The notes: generated from the letters alone by a model not told the origin. DNA of 64,000 nt from an uncultured delta proteobacterium (GCA_963815115.1 CAWFFN010000009.1:1184001-1248000); one strand, 5' to 3'. Numbered from the stretch's first letter, positions 49,842-64,000 are shown. Made by a program: numbers and translations.

Positions 49842-49857
49842 GCGACATCGTGTCGCA
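49842..49857 (+). repeat. attL core GCGACATCGTGTCGCA
   Basis: Identical to 63406-63421. Confidence 0.85.
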
Positions 49858-49957
49858 CGCCGGCGGTCACGCCCGACCACGCCCGACCACAAGGGCTTGA
49901 AATCTCAAGGGTCGCCGGATCGGCGAGTGACCCCTGAGAGCACCGAGTGTCCACACG

Positions 49958-49979
49958 TTCATGGACAGTTCATGGACAG
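49958..49979 (+). repeat. Integrase arm-type sites (TTCATGGACAG x2)
   Basis: Same doublet recurs at 63327-63347. Confidence 0.75.
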
Positions 49980-49987
49980 TCGCGGGC

Positions 49988-51123
49988 TTAGGACGTGCGC
50001 CGCAGCGGCAGGACGGTGCGCGGGCCGGGCGCTGCGAGGGCGGCGTCGAGCTTGGCCTGCGCCACGGCCAAGTCGTCGGTGCTGGTGACGTTGTACCGCG
50101 TGAGCATGCTGCGCGTCTTCCAGCCGCCGAGCTTCATGACGACGTCCTCCGGCACGCCGGCCCGGATGAGCGTCCGCGCGCCGCTGCGCCGCAGGTCGTG
50201 GAGCACGAGCCCGGCGAGGCCGGCGGCGGTGGTGCCCTGGGCCCAGATCCGGTCGAAGCGGCTGTGCCCACCGGCCGGCCGTTCAGGTGAAAGACGAAGG
50301 GCGAGGCCGCACTCCGGGCCTGCCACCGCCGCTCGAGCAGGGCGAGCAGCCGGCCGGTCACCGGCAGGGTCAGGGGCCGCTTGTTCTTGAGCACCCGCCC
50401 CGGCAGCTGAAGCGTACCGCCGACGACGTGCCCGGCTTCAACCTCGAGGGCGCACATCGACCAGGTGAGCAGGCGCGCGGCGTTCCGCCGCAGCAGTGTC
50501 AGGTACCCACACTCGACCAGGTCGGCGATGACCTCGTCCCGCTGTCGGAGCTCGCGGACCAGGGCATCGAACTCCGGCGGGTCGACAAAGCCCTCGCGTT
50601 CGTTGCCTTCCTCGGACCGCATGGTGATGGCGGGCATGCTCGGGAGGAGCTGCTTCTTGACGGCGAGCTTGAACCCGCGGCGGAGCACGCTCAGCTCCCG
50701 ATTGACCGTCGCCGGCTGCGCGCCCGCCGTGATGCGCGCGTCGGCGTAGCAGTCGACGTCGTCGGCCGTGATGTGCAGTGCCAGCATGTCGCCGAAGGTC
50801 TCGGCGAGGTGGGCGACGGTCTTGCCCGGCTGCTCGGCCGTGCCGAGCCGCTTGGCGGTGCGATTGCCCCGACGGGCGGCGTCGGCCCGCGCCAGCTCGA
50901 TGAGCTCCTCGAACGTCAGCTTGCGCGCCGCGGGGTCGACGTACTGCGGCGTGTCCGCCGCCTTCACCTTCTGCCGGAGCACGGTCCGCGCCTTGCGCTC
51001 GTCACGCTCGCCGGTCGATTCCTCGACGAGCTTGCCCTCGTGGTGGTAGCGCGCCCACCAGATGCCGCCACGGAGCCGGAGCGAGCCGGTGCCGCGCTCG
51101 CGTTTCGCGTTCTCAACGCTCAT
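49988..51123 (-). CDS. Tyrosine integrase (one frameshift near 50268)
   Basis: PATVNRELSVLRR, KNK, LHDLRRS, GGWKTRSMLTRY; adding one base gives 378 aa. Confidence 0.9.
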
Positions 51124-51151
51124 GCCGCATCCCTCCTGTGACGTCGCTCGT

Positions 51152-51613
51152 TCATCGGCATGTGCTGTAGCAGCCGCCGAGATTCTCGCGGCAGGCGTTC
51201 CCGGCTTCGGCAGCACTGGCTCTGGCCGCGTCGCCGGCTGGGCCGACTGGGGCGGAGTACCAGGTGTGGTCGAGGCACTGATTGTACAGGGCCTGACACT
51301 CGCGGACACATTGCCCGCCGGCCGTAGTCTGCACGTTGGGCACGGGCGGCATGGGCGTGCGCCGCACCGGGGGCACGGCGGGCGTCGTGGCGCACGCCGT
51401 CGCGAGCATTGCGACGAAAAGTGCGAGCGCCAGATTCCGTGTGCCGCCCCGGAGGGTAGTCAGAGCAGCGATCCGCATCCACGCCGACACGCTCAGCTTG
51501 GCACGGTGGGCGGCCTGAGCGATCCGGCGCCGCTCGGCGGCGGTCAGGTACACGTACAGGGTCACGCGGTCGGGAATCTCCGGCGGTCGGCCTGGGCCTT
51601 TTCGTGCAGGCAT
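51152..51613 (-). CDS. RHH-like N-domain fused to a lipoprotein-like Cys-rich domain
   Basis: GRPP...VTLYVYLTAAERRRIAQAA..AKLSVSAWMR, then hydrophobic stretch, LATAC and CxxxC motifs. Confidence 0.6.
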   Translation of the reverse strand: MPARKGPGRPPEIPDRVTLYVYLTAAERRRIAQAAHRAKLSVSAWMRIAALTTLRGGTRNLALALFVAMLATACATTPAVPPVRRTPMPPVPNVQTTAGGQCVRECQALYNQCLDHTWYSAPVGPAGDAARASAAEAGNACRENLGGCYSTCR

Positions 51614-51648: not shown

Positions 51649-51981
51649 TCAACCGACCCGCCGCCGGTCGAGCCAGCGCCGGAGCCCGGCCTCGTCGAAC
51701 ACCAGCCGCCGCCCGAGCCGTCGGGCGAACGGCAGGCGGCCGGCGCGCGCCTCCCGGTAGAGCCAGCCCCGCGACATCCCGGTGCGGCGCATGACCTCGG
51801 CGACGTCGAGAGCATCGGAAACGGGAGGGGCGCTCCCCCCGTTTGGTGCCGGCGCCGTCGCAGTCGTCCAGACCGCGAACTTGAGCGCCTCGAGCTCGCC
51901 GACGACCTGGGCGGCCTCGAGGGCGTCGACGCGGTCGGCCAGGGCGCGGAGCGCGGCGCGAAGATCGGCGCCGTCCGTCAT
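51649..51981 (-). CDS. Excisionase/AlpA-like HTH protein
   Basis: LDVAEVMRRTGMSRGWLY...GRRLVFDEAGLRRWL. Confidence 0.85.
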   Translation of the reverse strand: MTDGADLRAALRALADRVDALEAAQVVGELEALKFAVWTTATAPAPNGGSAPPVSDALDVAEVMRRTGMSRGWLYREARAGRLPFARRLGRRLVFDEAGLRRWLDRRRVG

Positions 51982-52187
51982 GAGCCCTCCGTGGCCGGCT
52001 TGCGCTCGGCCTCGAGCCGGCGGTGATACTCCGCCGGCCAGCACCACCAGCAGCGCCCTGCTGCGGCGATCCCGGCCCTCGGGACGCGACGCCCGCAGTC
52101 GGTGCAGGTCGCCGGCGCCACGTCATCGCCGGCCGACGGCCACGGACCGCAATCCGACCAGGCCTGGTCAGGCGAGCGCACCCACAT
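51978..52187 (-). CDS. Small zinc-finger-like protein
   Basis: CTDC...CWWC; start and stop overlap both neighbouring genes. Confidence 0.55.
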   Translation of the reverse strand: MWVRSPDQAWSDCGPWPSAGDDVAPATCTDCGRRVPRAGIAAAGRCWWCWPAEYHRRLEAERKPATEGS

Positions 52188-54522
52188 CAGGTGCCCTTGG
52201 GTCCGGAGATCGGGTGACAGGTAACGCACTCGTCGCCTTCCACGCCCCGGTGCCGCCACCGGCGGCCGCCGCACCGCACGCAAACCTGCCCGAGGCCGGT
52301 CTCGAAGATCGGGGCATCGTCGCCCGCCGGCTCGGGGTCGCAGCCGCTGCACTCGGTCGAGCCGCAGGTCGCGCAGGCGAGCCGCAGAGGACCGGCCCCG
52401 TTGCCATCCTTGCCGTCGCCTGCCCCCGAGGAAGTGCGGGAGAAGCGGCAAGAAACAGGGGTCTCGGGACTCCTTCTCTCCCAAGACTTTCCGGGAGGCG
52501 TCTCTTGCGGCCCTTGTGCCGCAACACCCGCGAGAGACTCCTCTTCGCAAAGCCCACTCGCAGCAGGGGTTTTCGCGTTTGACGTTTCTTGCCGCGGCCA
52601 CGCCTGATTCATCCCCACCACGAAGACGGGATGCCCACGGCGGGCAACATCCTTTACGAGGCGCCACCGGGCGCCGTTCTCGCGGTCGAGCACGGTGCGA
52701 GCGACCGCCCGGGAGACCGTGCCATCGCCATGCAGGAGGTCCACCGCCTCGGTCCGAGCCAGCGGCAGTTCGTCGGCCGCCGCCCGGCGGTCCACCTCAG
52801 CCACGAGGCTGGCGACGAGCTCGGCCTCGGTCGCTGCCCGCTCGGCCTCCGTCTGCGCCCGGGCAGCTTCCCCGGCCGCGTTCAGCTCCGCGGTCACTTC
52901 GCGCAACGACCAAGGCACCACGGCGAGCGTGATCTCGAGGGCGAAGGGCTCTGGTTCCTCGCCCACCCGGAACTTCGAGGGCACGAAGGCGAGCACGTAG
53001 CGATCTCGCCGGGTGCGGCGCGTCGCCCGCTCGGCCCACGCCTCCCGGCCCGCCGCCGGGAGCTCGGTCCACCAGTCCTTCGTCCCGCTCGGCTGAAAGC
53101 CGGTGGCGTCCCGCACCTCGTAGGCGATGTCGGCCCGGTCCTCGATGACCCCGCTCCCGCGCCCATGCGAGCCGCTCTTGATGGTGTTGCCGAGCACGAG
53201 GATCGACGGCCCATCGGCCCGGTGGACGATGTCGAGCAAGGGGGCGATGGCTTTCGAGGCTTGGCGGAATCCTGCTCGCCCACCCCCTCGGTGGACGCAT
53301 CGAGGGAGTCGACGATCACGAGTGCGTAGGTGCCGAACGGGAACGTGCGCCATGCCGCGGCATCGGTGAGCGGCGGCACCTCATCGCGGGTCAAGACCCG
53401 CAGGGTGGTGAGGTCCGCAGCCCCCCACGCACGGAGCCGTCGGCGGATTTCGCGCTTGGCGTTGTCGCGGTCGAGCAACAACACCGCGTGGCCTGCCCGG
53501 GCGAGCTGGATGGCGAAGGCATACGCGACGTGGGTCTTGCCGAGCCCTCGTGGCGAGAAAAAGTTCGTGAGCGACCCCGGGCTCAGCAGGCGAGGGACGA
53601 GCCAGTCGAGCGCGGGATCATCGCCGGCGAGAAACTCCGCCGCCGTGACGGCCTTGCTCCAGACCTCGCCCGAAGCGCCCCCACTCGTGAACGCGGCGCC
53701 AGCGTCGAACGTGTCGGGCCCGAACCACGTCTCGAGCTTCTCGAGCACGCCGGCCCCAAGCAGCTCGGCCAGGCGTGTGCCGCCGGTGGCGTGGCCTCCC
53801 TGGGCCAACCGCCGCGCCGTCGTCAGCACATCCTGGACGCGGGCACGTGTCTCCTCGTCCCCGGCGAGCCGTGCCGCCGTCCCGATGATCGTCTGCACGG
53901 CGTCCACCGCCACGGCCCGCCGCAGGAGGTAGCCCGCGGCAGCGAGGGCGATCTCGTGACGTACCCCGACCGTGCGCGGCCAGGCGCGGCCGAGGAGTGC
54001 GGTCACGGCGATGGAGCGGGCGGCATCCACGAGCGGGGCAGCCGGAACGATGGCTGGCGTCCGCGGGGCGCCGTCGAAGGCGATCGTCTCCCCGCTCGGA
54101 TGCACCGAGGGCGGCCACACCGTCTGCGAGCCGGTCGAGAGCAGCTCGACGAGCATCTCGGACTTCTTCGTGATCGGATCCGGTGGCGTGGTGTACTTCG
54201 TCGTCACCGGCGGCGGGCTGCACCGATAGAGCCAGTGCGACCGCGGTTTCCCGGGGCGTCCGAAGATGAGCGGCGTCGGCGGCAGGAACGTTGCCGCGAC
54301 GGCGACGGCTTCGGGCGCGTCCAGGTCGACGTCAACCAAACCGCCCGACGGCTCGCCGTTCAGGACGCCGAGATTGCTCTCGGGGTGGAAGTGCACCACG
54401 GACTCTTCCGTGTGGCGTTCCGCAGTCCAGTTGTTCCGGCCCGGATTCTTCGAGCCGCGGGGAATTTCAATCGGCGCGAAGCCGGCGCGCAGATACCGCC
54501 GGGCGGCCTCGATGCTGGTCAT
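52187..54522 (-). CDS. Bifunctional primase-polymerase fused to AAA/RecA-like helicase (frameshift near 53260)
   Basis: PIEIPRGSKNP, NLGV, DVDLD, SHWLY, QTVWPPSVHPSG; Walker A SPRGLGKT; Walker B VIVDS. Confidence 0.88.
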
Positions 54523-54530
54523 CGAGCGGG

Positions 54531-54755
54531 TTACCGTGCGGCGTCGGCCGTGAGCGCCGCGCCGAGGTGCAGTCGGCACTCGATCTCGTGCACGTCACGC
54601 AAGAGGCGCAGAGAGAAATCGAGTGCACAGGCAGCGTGCACGAGCAGCTCGGCGGTCCGGCCGACCCACAAGATGTGCGGCGCGTCGAGCGGCTCACCGC
54701 AGTAGATGCAGGCGGCATCCTTGACGCCGGCGCCCGGAATCGGGAACATCACCAT
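54531..54755 (-). CDS. Small hypothetical protein (CxxC...HxxC)
   Basis: AAGGAG RBS; CIYC and HAAC. Confidence 0.6.
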   Translation of the reverse strand: MVMFPIPGAGVKDAACIYCGEPLDAPHILWVGRTAELLVHAACALDFSLRLLRDVHEIECRLHLGAALTADAAR

Positions 54756-54813: not shown

Positions 54814-55209
54814 CTAGAACGGGATATTTTCGTCTTCGGGTGACGGAGAGGCGGGTGCGGCGGGTGGTGCGCTCGCCGCGTTCCGCTCGAGCGGCACGAA
54901 GCGCACGCCGAGACTCGACTTGCCGTTCATCACGACCGGGACGCGGTGCACCGTGACGTTCGCACCAGTCCACGTCGCGCCGTCTCGACCCAAGACCTCG
55001 GCGAGCGCCGCGTAGTTGGTACGGTTCAGCAGAAACGGCTTGTCGACCCCGACGAACGTCAGCACGACCTTCGGCCGGAGCACCCCCGTCTGCGGGTCTT
55101 TGACTTGTTCCACCGCGGCAGACTGAATTTGAATCACGCGGCCTGACGGGACGGGGAACGTAGCGTTGTTGTGGTATCGGGTCGGGAACAATTCGTCATC
55201 GTTGAACAT
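54814..55209 (-). CDS. Phage-type SSB-like protein
   Basis: LNRTN..AL...G....W.G..V pattern; acidic tail EDENIPF. Confidence 0.65.
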   Translation of the reverse strand: MFNDDELFPTRYHNNATFPVPSGRVIQIQSAAVEQVKDPQTGVLRPKVVLTFVGVDKPFLLNRTNYAALAEVLGRDGATWTGANVTVHRVPVVMNGKSSLGVRFVPLERNAASAPPAAPASPSPEDENIPF

Positions 55210-55553: not shown

Positions 55554-56251
55554 CTAGCTTGCTGGCGGTTTAAATCGCTTCCGAGGCGGCTTAATTCGCG
55601 GTCGAGGCGGTTTAATTCGTCGTCGAGGCGGTTTAATTCCGGTCCGGGTTCGCCGCCGTCCGCTGTGGCGCCGGTACGCCTCTTCGACCCGCTCATGGAG
55701 CCGATCGATGTCCTGACGGATTTCGTCCGGAGTCCGATCAGGAGCCGCCGTCCCGAACGTCACGCGCCGGCCACACCGCCAGCACATCCGCCACCCGGAG
55801 AACATCAGCGCCAGGGTGGCAGCAACAACAACATCACGCCGATGGGGCGCGTTTTCCTCTGCAACCGGTGCACGTAGTCGACCGTGGCCACGACGCAGGC
55901 GGTAAAGAGCACCTCGTGGGGGCGACCGCGGCCGCGTGGGCCACGGGGGAGTTGGTCAAGGTGATAGAACCAGTGTGCCGCCCGACACAGCCCTTCGTCG
56001 GTGCGCGGGTTGCTACCCGTGCGCTCCTCAAACGCCTCGGAGAGCGAGCGGGCGGCGGTCCCGAGGAGGTCCTCCGCCCGACAGGGCGCGGTCTCGAAGA
56101 GGTCGCCCGTCCATGCGGACAGCACTGGCCCTGATGCGGGCGGCGGCACACCATCCGGGTCGCTGTCGGCCGCCACATCCTGGCGCAAGCCCGCGCCACA
56201 CAGTGCGCACTCTCTCCGCGGCCTCGTCCTCGCCATCCCGCCGTCTCCCAA
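55554..56251 (-). CDS. Hypothetical protein (probable frameshift near 55845) with basic C-terminal repeats
   Basis: ORFs 55805-56251 and 55554-55805 join with one added base; CxxC motifs. Confidence 0.45.
55564..55647 (+). repeat. 4 x 21-bp tandem repeat (GGCGGTTTAATTCG...CGA)
   Basis: Units start at 55564, 55585, 55606 and 55627. Confidence 0.85.
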
Positions 56252-56426: not shown

Positions 56427-57128
56427 CTAGCCTATTGGATCGCGCACTACTTCTTTCCCCTGAGCGGCCACCATCCGCTCGAACTGTTCCAGCATCCCGA
56501 TATGGTCCATTGTTCGGAGCGGCGCCTGGGAAAAGTACACATTGTCGCCATACGGAACCCCGTCGCGACGGTCGATCCGGAAGAAGCTGGGCAGCGGAAG
56601 CTGACCTGGATCGGGAAGCATCTCTAGCGCTTTGAGTCGAAACTCGGGGAGCGCGACATCATTCGGAACACTCGGGTCGTACTGTCTAACCGCGCCCGAG
56701 AGCCAGAGGCCCATCTGCTTTGCGAGTGGTGACGCCGCCCACTCTAGCGGCACGTCGAGACGAACCTCCACGTGGCTCGTGTAGAGCCGCCGAGGGCTGA
56801 TCTCTTGAGCGATGCCGTCTGCCGCGCTTAGGAGGTCATCGATCACCGCGTCCGCGTCGTCCGTGGAGGCTGGCGTATCGGCCGTGACCGCCTGCGGATA
56901 GAGAGCCAGGCTGTTGATGACAATCGGTCGCCCCTCACGGACAAACTTGCCATGCCTGAACACGATGGGTGTCGAACTATCCAGAGGGGCAATGTCCTTG
57001 GCCTCGACCGGAACATGCACAAAGCCGTATCGCTCGCGAAGGGCGGCGATGATGTCTGGTATGTAGACGGGCTTGAGCGGCGCGATGAGCCTAAAAGCCT
57101 GTGCGAAAAGCACGGCTTGAAGTTTCAT
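56427..57128 (-). CDS. Uncharacterised third gene of the toxin-antitoxin cassette
   Basis: 233 aa; ATGA-coupled to the antitoxin; lower GC. Confidence 0.75.
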   Translation of the reverse strand: MKLQAVLFAQAFRLIAPLKPVYIPDIIAALRERYGFVHVPVEAKDIAPLDSSTPIVFRHGKFVREGRPIVINSLALYPQAVTADTPASTDDADAVIDDLLSAADGIAQEISPRRLYTSHVEVRLDVPLEWAASPLAKQMGLWLSGAVRQYDPSVPNDVALPEFRLKALEMLPDPGQLPLPSFFRIDRRDGVPYGDNVYFSQAPLRTMDHIGMLEQFERMVAAQGKEVVRDPIG

Positions 57129-57606
57129 CCTCCAATGGCCTCAAGCGCGGGAATGTGAAGGAACGGCTGCGCCGCCCGAACGGGCTGCGTGGTCTTCCTG
57201 CCTTGTAGAAGTTCCGGGATGCCCTTGTTGTCTGCGGGTGGTTGGGATGCCTGGAGGGGCTCCTTGTGCAGTGACTTCACGACGTCTTCGACGCTTGCCA
57301 GCGGAGTTTCAACTAGGTCGGTGACGAGCCGAGTCGGATCAACAGCCATCCCAACCATGAGATCGCTAATAGTATTGAGGGTGCAGTTACCGGGCGAACA
57401 AAGCCAGCGCGTGATCTGCGATGGCTCCCGACGCAGCCGGTTGGCGAGGCGAAGTTTATTTATTTCGCCCGCATCCTCCAGCCGAGAAACTCCCTGATGA
57501 CAACGTCATACAGGACGTTCTGGAGGTTCCGCCGAAAGAACCACACGGCCTTCTCAGGAACGACCTCATCATCGAGGGACAAGTCGGGCGTGAGATAGGT
57601 AGGCAT
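57125..57606 (-). CDS. XRE/HigA-like HTH antitoxin (frameshift near 57484)
   Basis: Manual reading: MPTYLTPD...IREFL / RLEDAGEINKLRLANRLRREPSQITRWLCSPGNCTLNTISDL. Confidence 0.7.
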
Positions 57607-58105
57607 CAGGATGTACCCCTTCCGTTACGGGCTCCTCCGGCAAGAGGCGATCCCACTCCTCCCTGCATTCGAGACTCGCTGCGGCAAATGCCTCTCGATC
57701 TGGTAGGTCCCTGCGGTATCGCCATGCGAGCGCGACGAAAACATTTCTGAACGCGAAACGACCAAAGATACGTATAGTCGGCTGCCTTCTGGTGCTTCTG
57801 ATCTCCCACACTTCCTCATGGCCGGGATCGATCCGTGCTAGATAGCTCTGCTCGTCGTCGCCGTCGTCGTAGTAGCCATCCCTGCGGACCGCCAGCTCTC
57901 GCCCCGACACGAATTCGAGCAAATCGGCACCGACCTCCGTCCATCGCTTTTGATCTTTCGCGGATGCTGGGCCCTCCAACAAAAGGCGGTGGATAGCGAC
58001 GGAAACATACAGCTCGCGGCCCCTGCCTCGGCTCGCGCGCTTCGGGAACACTCGGTGCAGGCGCCGTTCGTCGCATAGCCGGTTGATCGCCTCTCGATTT
58101 GACAT
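57569..58105 (-). CDS. RelE/HigB-like toxin
   Basis: LARIDPGHEEVWEIRS...IRIFGRF; lies upstream of an XRE HTH gene. Confidence 0.6.
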   Translation of the reverse strand: MSNREAINRLCDERRLHRVFPKRASRGRGRELYVSVAIHRLLLEGPASAKDQKRWTEVGADLLEFVSGRELAVRRDGYYDDGDDEQSYLARIDPGHEEVWEIRSTRRQPTIRIFGRFAFRNVFVALAWRYRRDLPDREAFAAASLECREEWDRLLPEEPVTEGVHPDAYLSHARLVPR

Positions 58106-58114
58106 ATAAGTCAA
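58099..58114. promoter_or_regulatory. Palindromic operator candidate over the toxin start
   Basis: TTGAC-ATATAA-GTCAA. Confidence 0.5.
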
Positions 58115-58865: not shown

Positions 58866-59087
58866 TCACCGCCGCGGCCGCCCACCGCCCGCGAGGCGAG
58901 CGGCCTCCCGCAGCAAGACCTGCCGCACCCAGGACTCGCGCGAGACGTGACAGCCCGCCGGAGCCCGTGCCTGGGCGCGCTGCACGGCCTCGTCAACCGC
59001 GCCAAGGAGCCCGTCGACGTCGCGCAGGAGGAAACTCCGGACGTGCCGCCGGGCCGGTGGCGGGACGGTGAAGTCGTCGTCGGTCAC
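58866..59087 (-). CDS. Small RHH-like protein
   Basis: SFLLRDV...VSRESWVRQVL; GTGA-coupled to the upstream gene. Confidence 0.5.
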   Translation of the reverse strand: MTDDDFTVPPPARRHVRSFLLRDVDGLLGAVDEAVQRAQARAPAGCHVSRESWVRQVLLREAARLAGGGRPRR

Positions 59088-59419
59088 GGCGCCTCGTCCT
59101 GGTCGTGCTCGTCGGCATCATCCTCCCAGAACACGTCGGCGCCCTCGGCCCGCGCGCGGCGCTTGACCTCGTTCCAGACGCATTCCGACAGCGTCGTCTC
59201 CGGGTCCAACCAGGGTCGGAATTCCCGGGCCTGCTCGTGCCGCTGGAGCGCGCCGCAGGTGCTGCCGCGCCAGTCCTCGATCACGCGCAGCGCATCCCAG
59301 GTCCCATTCCCCTCACGTTCGATCCGGCCCGCTTGCTCGGCCCGCACGATCGCAGGCTGGCTCACGCCCAGGATCCGGGCTAAGGCGACGTTCGTCTGAA
59401 CGATCGCGTACCACGGCAT
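59084..59419 (-). CDS. Nu1/TerS-like winged-HTH protein (Rpp-like packaging redirector candidate)
   Basis: NVALARILGVSQPAIVRAEQAGRI...WDALRVIEDW; GGAGG RBS; directly downstream of the cos-like site. Confidence 0.6.
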   Translation of the reverse strand: MPWYAIVQTNVALARILGVSQPAIVRAEQAGRIEREGNGTWDALRVIEDWRGSTCGALQRHEQAREFRPWLDPETTLSECVWNEVKRRARAEGADVFWEDDADEHDQDEAP

Positions 59420-59543
59420 GTGATTCCCTCCGGGGGTTACTCAGCACCACGTGGGTTTCCCCGCCTCCTCGGGCGGGAACCGTCGGCGATCCGCACGGTT
59501 GCTGCGCCGACGTGCTGGCCGTGTGACCCCCTTTTTGGGGGTC

Positions 59544-59605
59544 AAATAGCGGGGCACGCTGCCCCCCGCTGACCCGAGTAGCTTTCCGAGACGGCGGAAG
59601 GACCC
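59544..59605 (-). other. Lambda-like cos site
   Basis: Minus strand GGGTCCT(TCC)-N47-CGCTATTT, compared with lambda cosQ GGGTCCT-N45-CGCTATTT. Confidence 0.65.
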
Positions 59606-59626
59606 GAACCGTTCGCAGCGAGAATG

Positions 59627-60205
59627 CTAGCGCTCATCGCTGCGGTGGGGCCGTTGCACGCGGAGCGCCCGGCCGAGGAGGACGCTGCCGTCGAGGCATG
59701 CGATGACGGCGTCGGCATCCTCGGGGTCCTTGAGCCAGACGTGGGCCGAGGACCTGCCGTTGCCCGAGTGCATGACGACCTTCCAGACCGGAGCGACGGG
59801 CGCGATGTGGTCCTCCAGGTCGACCTCGCATGCGTTGTTCGGGACGTTCCCGATGTACACATGCGCGCCCTGGCGGCCGGCTGGCGGGGCGGGGCGCGGA
59901 GGAGCCTGGCCGGGTGGCGGACGCTTGGAGACGCGCACCGTCCGGCCGAGGAGCGGGCGCGCGGGGAGCGCGGCCAGGGCGCGCTCGGCCTCATCGACCG
60001 TGCGGAAGAGCACCACGGCGGCCTCGACGTCGCCGCGGTCGTTCCGCAACGGGGTGACCTCGAGGGGCGTGATGCCGCTGCCCTCCTCGACGTAGCGACG
60101 GAGCTGGCCCTGCGTCACCTGGCCCGGCAGGCCGCCGAGAAACAGCTCGCACGCGCGCCGGGCCAACGGGGAGAAGCGGGGCTCGACCACCGTGGACCCA
60201 GGCAT
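59627..60205 (-). CDS. Tandem RRM (RNA recognition motif) protein
   Basis: RNP2-like LFLGGLP and VYIGNVP; AVVLF...EAERAL...LLGRTVRV; AHVWL...LDGSVLLGRALRV. Confidence 0.8.
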   Translation of the reverse strand: MPGSTVVEPRFSPLARRACELFLGGLPGQVTQGQLRRYVEEGSGITPLEVTPLRNDRGDVEAAVVLFRTVDEAERALAALPARPLLGRTVRVSKRPPPGQAPPRPAPPAGRQGAHVYIGNVPNNACEVDLEDHIAPVAPVWKVVMHSGNGRSSAHVWLKDPEDADAVIACLDGSVLLGRALRVQRPHRSDER

Positions 60206-60756: not shown

Positions 60757-61211
60757 TCACCCAGCCAGGCCGAGGTACTGCCGGCAGCGCGCGACGAGCT
60801 GGCCGAGCCGCTGCGCGCGTTCGTATGCCGAGTCACGCGCGCCGCTGACGCGGGCGCACTCGGCCTGCGTCTCCTCGAGCTCGCGCGCCACGTCGTCGAG
60901 GTTGTCGCCGATGGCGGGCTGCCACGTCCGCGCCGTCGGGCCACGGCTGGGATCGCGCACCCATTGCCCGGGATGCAAGGTCGGGTGCGTCACGCGCAGC
61001 TCCTCGAGGCGGCGCGCCAGGCGCTGCTCCTCGTCCCGGAGGGCGCGCGCCTGCTCGGTGAGGATGCGGGCGCGCTCCCGGGCGACCTCGGCGTCCGTCT
61101 CCATCGCTTCCAGCTTCTCCGCGCCGCGGCCGACAGCGCCTGGCGGGCGCGCCGGGCGCCGCCCGGGACGGTGAGCGGGCCCGGCGTCAGCGCGCCGGCC
61201 TCGGTCCTCAT
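60757..61211 (-). CDS. Coiled-coil hypothetical protein (frameshift near 61120)
   Basis: ORFs 60990-61211 and 60757-61266 join with one added base. Confidence 0.55.
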
Positions 61212-61465
61212 GGCGTCGCCCGCCGGGCGGCCTGCGCGGCCATGACAGCGGCGTGTCGAGCCGCATAGATGCTCTCGGCGTCGAGCGTCGCCGGCTCAGG
61301 TTCCCGCGGTGCCGGCGCCGGGGCCAGCGCGGTGGCCGCGGCGCGCTGATAGCGGCCCGCGAGCCCCTGCAACGTCGCCACCGTGTTCCCGTGCTGCGCG
61401 ATCAGGGCCGCATGCTCGGCCAGGATGCCGCACGCGGCCCGGACCTCCTCCGTCGTGGTGCTCAT
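61208..61465 (-). CDS. Hypothetical protein
   Basis: AAGGAG RBS; ATGA overlaps with neighbours. Confidence 0.65.
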   Translation of the reverse strand: MSTTTEEVRAACGILAEHAALIAQHGNTVATLQGLAGRYQRAAATALAPAPAPREPEPATLDAESIYAARHAAVMAAQAARRATP

Positions 61466-61880
61466 GGGTCAGTCTCCTTTCGAGCGGCAGCGGCCTCCAC
61501 GATGCGTGGCGAACCCGAGGCCATGCGTTCGGGTGCGGGTCGGCCAGCGGGGAAGGATGGGCCCCGCCAGTCGATCGCCACGCATCGTGCAGGCCGCGTC
61601 AGCGGCATCGCGGCAGCTCCTGCACGGCGTGCCGCTTCAGGTAGGCGGTTCGCAGGGCCTGCTTCGAGACCACCGGCACGCTGGTGGCCGCGCCCGCCGC
61701 ACACCACGCGGTCTCCGACACGCCGGCGTGGTCGAGCACCACGAGGAGCGCCTCGGGGTCGACGGGGCCGCGCGCGAGCACGCCGCGCACGAAGGCCCGG
61801 ACCAACTCGGCGCGGTCAAGCACCACGCCGCGGCTGGCGCGACAGAGGGCGGCAAGGTCCTGGGCGCGGGCGGGACTCAT
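61462..61880 (-). CDS. Hypothetical protein (probable frameshift near 61610)
   Basis: ATGA overlaps at both ends; length 419 +1 = 140 codons. Confidence 0.5.
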
Positions 61881-62083
61881 GCCGCCCCCCGCGGGCGCCG
61901 GGTGCGCGCGAGCCACGCCTCGACATCGCTCAATCGGCAGCGGCTCCACCCGCCAGGATCGAAGATCGGCAACTCCCCGCGCTCCGCGGCCTGAAAGAGG
62001 AGGTGGCGGCCGATGCCGAACAGCCGGGCGGCCTGCCGCACCGTCACGAGGCGCTCGACGTCGACCGCTGGGACGTCCATCAC
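61877..62083 (-). CDS. Excisionase/AlpA-like HTH protein
   Basis: LVTVRQAARLFGIG...GELP...RCRLSDVEAWL. Confidence 0.8.
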   Translation of the reverse strand: MMDVPAVDVERLVTVRQAARLFGIGRHLLFQAAERGELPIFDPGGWSRCRLSDVEAWLARTRRPRGAA

Positions 62084-63193: not shown

Positions 63194-63326
63194 GGACCTC
63201 GTTCGCCATCGCCGGAGCCTCCATCCGGGGTCCCGTGCTTCGCAGCCCGCTGTGCGGCGCCTCGTTGCGACGGAGGGTCAGCGGTGCCCGGCCGGTCTCG
63301 AGCGGCTGCCGGGGGGTGTCACGCGG

Positions 63327-63347
63327 TCATGGACAGTTCATGGACAA
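63327..63347 (+). repeat. Integrase arm-type sites (TCATGGACAG TTCATGGACAA)
   Basis: Matches 49958-49979. Confidence 0.75.
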
Positions 63348-63405
63348 TCCGCCCGGCCGCCGCCGAAAACCCTAGCATCTACGGGGCGAATTGCCCGGCG
63401 TGCCC

Positions 63406-63421
63406 GCGACATCGTGTCGCA
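63406..63421 (+). repeat. attR core GCGACATCGTGTCGCA
   Basis: Identical to 49842-49857. Confidence 0.85.
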
Positions 63422-63456
63422 TTCCGGTGGCCCGCGCGAGGCGCTAATCGCAAGCC

Positions 63457-64000
63457 GTGCACCGCTCCCGCTGGCAGTCGATCGCCCAGTGCTTCGGCGC
63501 GCTGGGGATCCTCCTGGCCGCCTCGGCCACGCCCGCGGGCGCGCACGGCATCGTCGGACAGCGGTTCTTCCCGGCCACGCTGTCGATCGACGATCCCTTC
63601 GTGGCGGACGAGCTCTCCCTCCCCACCGCCGGGTTCACCAGGCAGCGGCGCACGGCGGAGGCGCCGTCCACGCTCGAGACCGAGTTCAGCGCGGAGCTGT
63701 CCAAGCGCCTCAGCACCAACCTGGGTCTGTCGCTCGGCGCCGCCGTGATCATGGACGCGCCCCGCGGCGGACCCACCATCGCCGGCTTCGACAACATGGA
63801 GATCGGGCTCAAGTACGTCTTTCTCAAGCGCGCCGAGAACGAGCTGCTCCTCTCCGGTGGCGTCGACATCGACGTCGGGGGAACCGGCCAGGAGCGCGTG
63901 GGCGCCGAGCCCTTCTCCACCTTCACGCCGTCGCTGTTCTTCGGCAAGGGCATGGGCGATCTGCCCGACGACCTGCGCTATTTGAAGCCGTTCGCGTTGA
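63457..64000 (+). CDS. Putative outer-membrane beta-barrel/transporter, 5' part; runs off the window
   Basis: Manual translation: signal peptide, then AHGIVGQRFFPATLSIDDPFVADELSLPT...GFDNMEIGLKY. Confidence 0.7.
   Translation, partial: MHRSRWQSIAQCFGALGILLAASATPAGAHGIVGQRFFPATLSIDDPFVADELSLPTAGFTRQRRTAEAPSTLETEFSAELSKRLSTNLGLSLGAAVIMDAPRGGPTIAGFDNMEIGLKYVFLKRAENELLLSGGVDIDVGGTGQERVGAEPFSTFTPSLFFGKGMGDLPDDLRYLKPFAL

Follow-up and report, generated by a model that had tools for sequence, protein, structure and literature searches.

A divergent tandem-RRM protein encoded on a phage-satellite-like island of an uncultured delta proteobacterium

A tandem-RRM gene inside an integrated island

The window, a stretch of 64,000 nucleotides (nt) from an uncultured delta proteobacterium (GCA_963815115.1 CAWFFN010000009.1:1184001-1248000), contains an integrated phage-satellite-like island of about 13.4 kb, and inside this island lies a gene for a protein of 192 amino acids (aa) with two RNA recognition motif (RRM) domains. 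Among the RNA-binding domains of eukaryotes the RRM is the most common one, but it has been little studied in bacteria. The gene starts with ATG, and its GC content at third codon positions (GC3) of 0.88 is typical for genes of this 68%-GC genome. It stands between two direct repeats, the putative attachment (att) sites, in a string of genes that also encodes a tyrosine integrase, helix-turn-helix (HTH) proteins of the AlpA/excisionase type and a PrimPol replication protein. The coordinates of all these features are collected in Table 1, together with the identity of the copies on a sibling island (contig C7) in the same genome.

Table 1. Features of the island and of the tandem-RRM gene, with the identity of the corresponding copy on the C7 sibling island
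Feature	Position	Strand	Evidence and remarks	Identity to C7 copy
Left direct repeat, putative att	49952..49981	.	30 nt, 27/30 identical, 20-nt identical core	
Tyrosine integrase	50134..51309	-	phrog_1 E 3.8e-26; Int_N E 5.6e-5	
HTH_17/Phage_AlpA excisionase-type gene	51649..52047	-	Pfam and PHROG	
PrimPol + AAA_25 replication gene	52187..54579	-	Pfam; split over two frames	81% nt
Stretch shared with C7	58447..58907			94% nt
111-aa HTH protein, weakly TerS-N-like	59084..59419	-	phrog_57 E 1.4e-4, profile positions 17-75/199	58% aa
Spacer between RRM stop and next gene	59420..59626	-	207 nt; folds into four local hairpins	
Conserved hairpin block, ATTT-G/C-ACCCCCAAAA..GGGGT	59533..59567	-	Candidate cis site	
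Tandem-RRM gene (P0001)	59627..60205	-	Open reading frame with ATG start, 192 aa; Pfam RRM_1; AlphaFold2; Foldseek	
RRM2 (residues 114-186)	59648..59866	-	Pfam stretch 116-182 and alignments	
Pro-rich linker (residues 96-113)	59867..59920	-	8 Pro/18 residues; lowest-confidence AlphaFold2 block	
RRM1 (residues 19-95)	59921..60151	-	AlphaFold2 secondary structure and sequence	
Gene z, 179 aa	60210..60746	-	C7 paralogue; 40%-identical homologue on contig L029	60% aa
Gene y	60757..61266	-	Coiled-coil-looking by eye	75% aa
HTH_17 (AlpA/excisionase-type) regulator	61877..62083	-	Pfam HTH_17 E 1.8e-6; phrog_66; heads the leftward gene string	84% aa
Right direct repeat, putative att	63320..63349	.	Pairs with the left copy, bounding ~13.4 kb	

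Two RRM domains with degenerate RNP1 motifs

The Pfam search matches two stretches of the protein to RRM_1 (Pfam ID PF00076), with an E-value of 4.5e-14 and 52.5 bits against a gathering cut-off of 20.7 bits, and the best stretch, residues 116 to 182, covers the complete profile (positions 1-70/70). The RRM_occluded family also matches RRM1 weakly, at residues 25 to 94. The RRM-type matches in NCBIfam all remain below threshold, among them Rbp_regulator (NF058537) with 26.2 bits against a curated cut-off of 100. The AlphaFold2 structure, predicted with a 28-row alignment (mean pLDDT confidence score 88.8, pTM confidence score 0.57), folds into two beta-alpha-beta-beta-alpha-beta units at residues ~20-94 and ~116-184, the relative orientation of which is not confidently predicted. 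For RRM1 the strands (E) and helices (H) are E20-24, H32-43, E49-54, E60-66, H70-79 and E91-94. The alignment-free single-sequence model is poor (pLDDT 57.3), yet it shows the same two-unit topology. The top Foldseek matches in the PDB are the tandem-RRM proteins NONO, hnRNPA2B1, U2AF65 and HuR (E ~1e-11), and the ESM Atlas annotates the protein as "RRM" (and the product of the preceding gene z as "hypothetical"). The protein is a genuine but divergent tandem-RRM protein. Two RRM units joined by a Pro-rich linker had already been proposed in the initial annotation, and the two profile matches, the twice-predicted fold, the solved tandem-RRM structures and the proline content of residues 96 to 113 all agree with it. 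An HNH nuclease identity was rejected, because the Pfam matches are to RRM families only.

The hallmark of the RRM is an RNP2 and an RNP1 consensus with three exposed aromatic residues. RRM1 retains the Phe in an RNP2-like LFLGGL, lacks the RNP2 Asn and has the sequence DVEAAVVL at the RNP1 position, with both aromatics gone. RRM2 keeps the Tyr of RNP2 (VYIGNV), and its RNP1, RSSAHVWL, has Ser at position 3 and His at position 5, where the relatives carry Phe. The strings AVVLF and AHVWL, previously singled out as degenerate RNP1 sequences, are both found in the translation, at residues 63-67 and 154-158.

The architecture of two RRM_1 domains with a short linker is shared with eukaryotic tandem-RRM proteins such as U2AF65 (RRM1-2), HuR (RRM1-2), hnRNPA2B1 and NONO/SFPQ, which are the best structural and HMMER matches. 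The identity to them is, however, 17 to 24% among the Foldseek matches listed, and the window protein differs in its degenerate RNP1 motifs, in having no extra domains and in being encoded by a bacterial mobile element.

Relatives form a small clade apart from host RRM proteins

An exhaustive HMMER search of 1.84 billion representative sequences yields 651 matches at an E-value of 1e-3 or better, and the best 150 of these are mostly long multi-RRM proteins of eukaryotic appearance. Alike in size, architecture and high-GC-type composition are P0002 (57% identical to the window protein), P0004 and P0005 (44%), P0024, P0091 and two fragments; word-index searches return two proteins for the window protein, three for its profile A2 and two for gene z. 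The RNP motifs of RRM2 are retained across the family, and canonical RNP1 motifs are present in RRM1 of P0024 (GYGFVEM) and P0004 (RFAFLTL).

Further searches point to a rare protein. Genome contigs scanned with P0004 and with alignment A8 contain no further relative, and neither do viral contigs scanned with alignment A3 or 50,697 GenBank phage records searched with tblastn. Scanning viral sequences with the single RRM of a congeneric genome (G003, a sister species, described below) gives four 25-residue matches only, none with an RRM. The viral scan with alignment A2 retrieves contig L008, which carries P0002, and the metagenome scan with alignment A4 retrieves contig L029, which carries P0091, and four weak loci that have nothing in common with the window. 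No PHROG family matches the tandem-RRM protein, and the 21 BFVD matches at an E-value of 1e-3 or better include no phage protein, the named ones being giant-virus proteins.

Within the family of the host, single-RRM genes occur in 25 of 25 genomes, whereas a match spanning both domains is found only in the host genome itself (G000, which holds the window island, the C7 sibling island and an orphan locus on contig C9). Among the 24 other genomes there is one partial match, the single RRM of the G003 island. Of 401 genomes sampled across the phylum, one matches at an E-value of 1e-18 or better; of 401 sampled from the class, seven do so at 1e-17 or better, namely G000, G003, a genome with a further single-domain match and four genomes of another family (f4). 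The f4 matches, in 4 of 55 sampled genomes of that family, are canonical tandem RRMs in open frames of 284 to 297 aa, so tandem RRMs are not unknown in bacterial chromosomes. One f4 locus with annotated neighbours (L062:9382-10212 in genome G618; one of the four) encodes 276 aa with an RRM_1 E-value of 1.4e-42, canonical motifs and a long C-terminal tail, and lies among metabolic genes. It shares the two RRM_1 domains in one bacterial protein with the window protein, which in contrast is divergent and set among island genes. The earlier remark that tandem RRMs are typically eukaryotic is therefore somewhat too broad.

In the domain tree, all six RRM1 domains of the tandem members fall into a single clade (support 96/96), and the RRM2 domains of these proteins form another together with the single RRM of G003 (support 87/99). 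The five canonical single-RRM genes of the host genome, which have canonical RNP motifs, and the chromosomal f4 tandem RRM fall outside both island clades, and the f4 domains group with the host-type RRMs. Bacterial single-domain RRM proteins of the cyanobacterial Rbp type (NF058537), which are cold-regulated in cyanobacteria, belong to the same domain family and are represented by these five host genes; the window protein differs from them by its two domains, its separate clade and its mobile context. Tree and contexts place the window protein in a small, rare RRM clade found on satellite-like islands and with capsid or packaging modules, apart from the host RRMs.

That the gene could be an ordinary host RRM gene merely located near an integrase, with no connection to mobile elements, would fit with a lineage rich in RRMs (five in this genome, matches in all 25 family genomes) and with the chromosomal tandem RRMs of the same class. 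We nevertheless regard it as highly improbable, given that the gene lies within the direct repeats, that none of the 24 other family genomes has a two-domain match, that the clade is separate from the host genes and that every relative with a retrieved context belongs to, or adjoins, a phage or island module. The initial annotation had asked whether the homologues are ordinary chromosomal RRM genes with no tie to mobile elements; the tree and the three contexts retrieved speak against this.

Genomic context of the relatives

Context was retrieved for three of the six relatives (P0002, the G003 single RRM and P0091; P0004, P0005 and P0024 were left out), and in all three the gene is in or beside a mobile or phage module.

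P0002 is encoded on a 5.7-kb IMG/VR contig (L008) with a CheckV completeness of 14%. It starts 2 nt past a head-decoration gene, and upstream of this are a lambda-family portal gene and a protease-capsid fusion.

The G003 protein is a single RRM of 87 aa (RRM_1 E-value 4.6e-11), the gene of which overlaps the start of the small terminase gene, TerS, by 4 nt (ATGA). The island on contig C1 at about 474500-485900 (loci L034, L035 and L010) has the order integrase, HTH, DUF3631, unknown, RRM, TerS, large terminase (TerL, GpA), portal, protease-capsid fusion and head-tail adaptor Ad1; the examined stretch contains no tail genes and no HNH gene, and host regulators come next. It thus has the terL, portal, capsid and adaptor genes, without tail, of a capsid-forming phage-inducible chromosomal island (cfPICI), with the HNH gene missing. 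Such islands (PMC10085698) usually carry an HNH gene before TerS-TerL, and the G003 island follows their plan with the RRM gene standing at that place. The TerS protein (phrog_57 E-value 7e-13) covers only positions 64-175 of the 199 in the profile and therefore lacks the N-terminal HTH part, the part that is matched by the window HTH protein. The portal and capsid proteins of G003 and L008 are 57% and 69% identical, and elements of one type therefore have the RRM gene in two different places.

P0091 is encoded on the 5.6-kb metagenome contig L029, with the z homologue upstream of its RRM gene and no recognisable phage genes after it. The contig begins (L029:1-267) with a 58%-identical copy of the gene in the right flank of the window island (63457-63999), and this copy beside the z and tandem-RRM pair suggests insertion at the same site in a related organism.

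As a pseudo-RRM adaptor, the protein might have drifted in both domains from nucleic-acid binding to protein-protein contacts, in the manner of a U2AF homology motif (UHM), with capsid or terminase proteins as possible partners. RRM1 without the RNP1 aromatics and the RNP2 Asn, an acidic RRM2 without the aromatic at RNP1 position 3, the weak RRM_occluded match on RRM1 and the position of the L008 gene beside structural genes would be in line with such an adaptor. On the other hand, the RNP2 aromatics are present in both domains, the relatives P0024 and P0004 have canonical RNP1 motifs in RRM1 and the proposed partner is still hypothetical, and we consider this explanation quite improbable.

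Gene content of the island

All genes from 62083 to 50134 point leftward. The HTH_17 regulator is followed by the unknown genes x, y and z, the RRM gene, the 207-nt spacer and the 111-aa HTH gene, and then by several small unknown genes, a protein ending in ...ENIPF, PrimPol + AAA_25, the AlpA-type HTH gene and the tyrosine integrase. The Int_N score of the integrase, 24.2 bits, is under the Pfam cut-off of 27 bits. Genes y and z match no known family (Pfam and PHROG for both, also PADLOC for z). A single nucleotide separates the TGA stop of gene z from the RRM ATG, and translation of the two genes is therefore probably coupled. Together with the 2-nt gap in L008 and the 4-nt overlap in G003, this tight spacing in three contexts argues against an independently transcribed insert.

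Several features expected of a satellite are found: the integrase, the flanking repeats, an AlpA-type regulator, a primase/replicase and a small size without capsid, tail, lysis or TerL genes among about 20 candidate open reading frames (ORFs) scanned in or beside the element with Pfam and PHROG, many of which have no match at all. The same ORFs include no portal gene and no Psu, Delta or Sid homologue. As a hijacking or packaging gene there is only the weakly TerS-like HTH gene, with no match in Pfam. The island shares integrase, AlpA-type HTH and primase with phage-inducible chromosomal island (PICI) and P4-like satellites. A cfPICI has its own terL, portal, capsid and head-tail adaptor genes and no tail or holin genes; the window island lacks genes for TerL, portal and capsid. 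PADLOC finds no defence gene on the island, with a single weak match below threshold, to the HTH gene.

Marker genes put the completeness of the host genome at 100%, and searches of it for GpA, lambda-type portal, Phage_portal, TerL_ATPase and Terminase_6N gave no match. From its content the island is plausibly a PICI- or P4-like satellite, with the helper not found. The carriage on a phage satellite that was claimed initially is thus plausible from gene content (integrase, AlpA-type HTH, PrimPol and repeats), in a genome where a terminase or portal of helper type was not found. Four congeners were examined for an empty attachment site, and none was found; there, the left and right flanks lie apart, and the boundaries of the island are thus set by the repeats alone.

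The PrimPol/AAA_25 gene is interrupted by a 1-nt deletion near 53245 (region ~53236-53287), which separates the frames 52894-54579 and 52187-53353. The deletion was recognised with tblastn of the intact 802-aa C7 paralogue, which matches in two frames, and an alignment with a 1-nt gap. Either the gene is a pseudogene or the split is an error of assembly.

A sibling island with another gene in the same slot

The sibling island (C7:1091686-1105905, locus L036) has the same backbone of integrase, intact PrimPol-helicase, HTH gene, z, y and HTH_17. The slot that the RRM gene takes in the window island, between z and the HTH gene, is filled here by a gene for an unrelated 152-aa protein with a signal-peptide-like N-terminus. 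Because of this exchange, the RRM gene is regarded as swappable: it occupies a variable slot, is dispensable for the island backbone and is accessory rather than essential. In the middle of the C7 island we also see a 444-aa ORF, transposase-like by eye only.

The question arises whether the RRM gene is simply cargo, serving interference with helper or competitor phages, counter-defence against an RNA-based host system or, as an RNA chaperone, a benefit to the host. Satellites carry defence and other accessory genes (PMC10085698), the C7 slot holds an unrelated gene amid conserved neighbours and the RRM position differs among elements. Against swappable cargo, neither the RRM gene nor its neighbours match PADLOC, the translational coupling to the flanking operon genes is tight in three contexts and the clade turns up in two types of element, which speaks for a tie to the biology of the elements. 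We consider the cargo explanation unlikely. Even if it were correct, the locus would still be a clean example of a variable slot amid conserved satellite genes.

The spacer, the TerS-like gene and packaging

The spacer after the RRM gene contains no sigma-70 or intrinsic-terminator consensus. The ACCCCCAAAA block in the spacer recurs, conserved, before each of the three HTH paralogues of the genome, about 105 to 115 nt upstream in the window and the C7 island, and 66 to 114 nt upstream at the C9 orphan, varying with the start codon chosen. The motif was also sought in the G003 and L008 loci and was not found there. The block is a candidate operator, promoter element or cos/pac-associated site. 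The layout of spacer and HTH gene recalls that of cos and Nu1 in lambda, and it would equally suit an operator or a promoter element. The gene had initially been placed immediately upstream of cos; we can confirm a conserved hairpin block before a weakly TerS-like HTH gene, with the cos site itself unverified.

The 111-aa HTH protein has nothing significant in Pfam. Its phrog_57 match lies at the N-terminal end of the profile, which, from the HTH character of the protein, is taken to be DNA binding, and does not extend over both HTH and oligomerisation core as in a small terminase. The phrog_57 matches of the two paralogues are weak as well, and the protein shows no similarity to the G003 TerS. 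The orphan paralogue (C9:406036-406477, locus L037:18037-18478) is flanked by a P-type ATPase gene and by DUF4405/ferric-reductase/ApbE genes, in ordinary chromosomal surroundings. The late or packaging operon assumed earlier is a tentative label, given by the weak phrog_57 match to the HTH gene and lacking Pfam support.

The HNH nuclease of cos phages and cfPICIs helps in cos cleavage (PMC10085698). The G003 RRM gene occupies the same position, a small gene directly before TerS-TerL, whereas the RRM has no sequence or fold relation to HNH and no catalytic site. That this slot often holds an HNH gene, as the initial annotation had stated for the window gene, thus applies to the island of a relative.

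The RRM protein could be a packaging cofactor, a nucleic-acid-recognising partner of TerS that replaces the TerS HTH domain or the HNH accessory protein and chooses the packaged DNA. The overlap of the G003 RRM gene with a TerS matching positions 64-175 only, the complementary match of the window HTH protein, the G003 island without HNH at the place usual in cfPICIs (PMC10085698), and the position of the window gene next to the conserved cis block and the TerS-N-like gene are in favour of it. In L008, though, the RRM gene comes after a decoration gene, with no terminase gene before it, and the C7 island retains the HTH gene and the conserved block without an RRM. Furthermore, RRMs bind single strands and the recognition sites of terminases are duplex DNA, and the TerS label of the window HTH gene is weak, with no Pfam match and one paralogue amid ordinary genes. 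We therefore judge a packaging cofactor to be unlikely. A still less probable version is that the whole clade acts as the recognition subunit of satellite packaging machines, with an HTH-less TerS as in G003 or a stand-alone HTH protein as in the window. It would replace HNH or HTH accessory functions and give packaging specificity via a single-stranded or RNA intermediate. If this were true, a satellite would have a novel means of labelling its own DNA for packaging.

Predicted function and significance

The protein is most likely an RNA- or single-stranded-DNA-binding accessory factor of the packaging-associated operon of the element, as far as genes and motifs can indicate. It would be made together with the packaging-associated genes and would bind single-stranded nucleic acid, most likely RNA, mainly by RRM2, which keeps the RNP2 aromatic and in the relatives also the aromatic at RNP1 position 5. 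RRM1, degenerate in the subfamily, would be auxiliary or serve in protein contacts. The function of the protein would most likely be post-transcriptional control of late transcripts of the element or of its helper phage, for example by stabilisation, translational control or melting of the hairpins 3' of its own gene. We put forward this specific form, binding chiefly via RRM2 and action on late or packaging transcripts, as a tentative proposal.

Several observations weigh against it. The RRM2 domain is acidic (pI 5.7), and with His in place of Phe in RRM2 and the RNP1 aromatics of RRM1 lost, weak or absent nucleic-acid binding by the window protein is possible. The spacer folds barely better than its shuffled versions (z-score -1.75). 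The RRM gene has no fixed place, preceding TerS in one element and following the decoration gene or z in others, and this variation and the C7 exchange agree equally well with a regulator and with swappable cargo. The G003 genes for the RRM and TerS leave no room for a spacer between them, which rules out antitermination, one of the roles suggested initially, as a general function. Finally, the element may be decaying, because its replication gene is frameshifted and the genome lacks a helper-type terminase or portal.

As judged from the titles listed, no RRM protein of phages or their satellites has been described in the literature searched, and no paper there connects RRMs with phage satellites or with phage terminases. 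On the sequences compared here, the proteins make up an undescribed RRM clade that appears specific to phage-satellite-type elements, with a predicted function. An RRM clade with capsid and packaging modules would, if true, open a way into the post-transcriptional control or the packaging specificity of satellites. The clade is likewise a pointer to cfPICI-like islands in a lineage of high GC content, with at least one near-identical trace in a soil metagenome. This trace is a single soil-metagenome DNA run with a 0.08 share of the sampled words, no RNA run being among those listed; its contigs give a few near-identical pieces of 151 nt at 59240-59557 and say nothing on excision, ends or expression.

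Further features of the island

Two genes of 233 and 181 aa at 56427-58114 (minus strand) fail the coding filter, unlike the rest of the island, because of their low GC3, and they may be recently acquired cargo; no match to Pfam, PHROG or PADLOC was found for them.

An intergenic region of the island (55564-55647) contains four tandem 21-nt repeats of the GGCGGTTTAA type with 76% identity to the first copy, which could be iterons of a replication origin. At 54814-55209 (minus strand), a 131-aa protein with a match to phrog_21613 (E-value 1.3e-5) ends in ...EDENIPF, and its C7 paralogue ends in ...ETDIPF, a tail reminiscent of the C-terminal tip of bacterial single-stranded-DNA-binding (SSB) proteins.

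Outside both island ends, on the outer side of each att-like repeat, a 25-nt repeat with the palindrome GCGACATCGTGTCGC is found at 49842-49866 and 63406-63430, the two copies being 88% identical.

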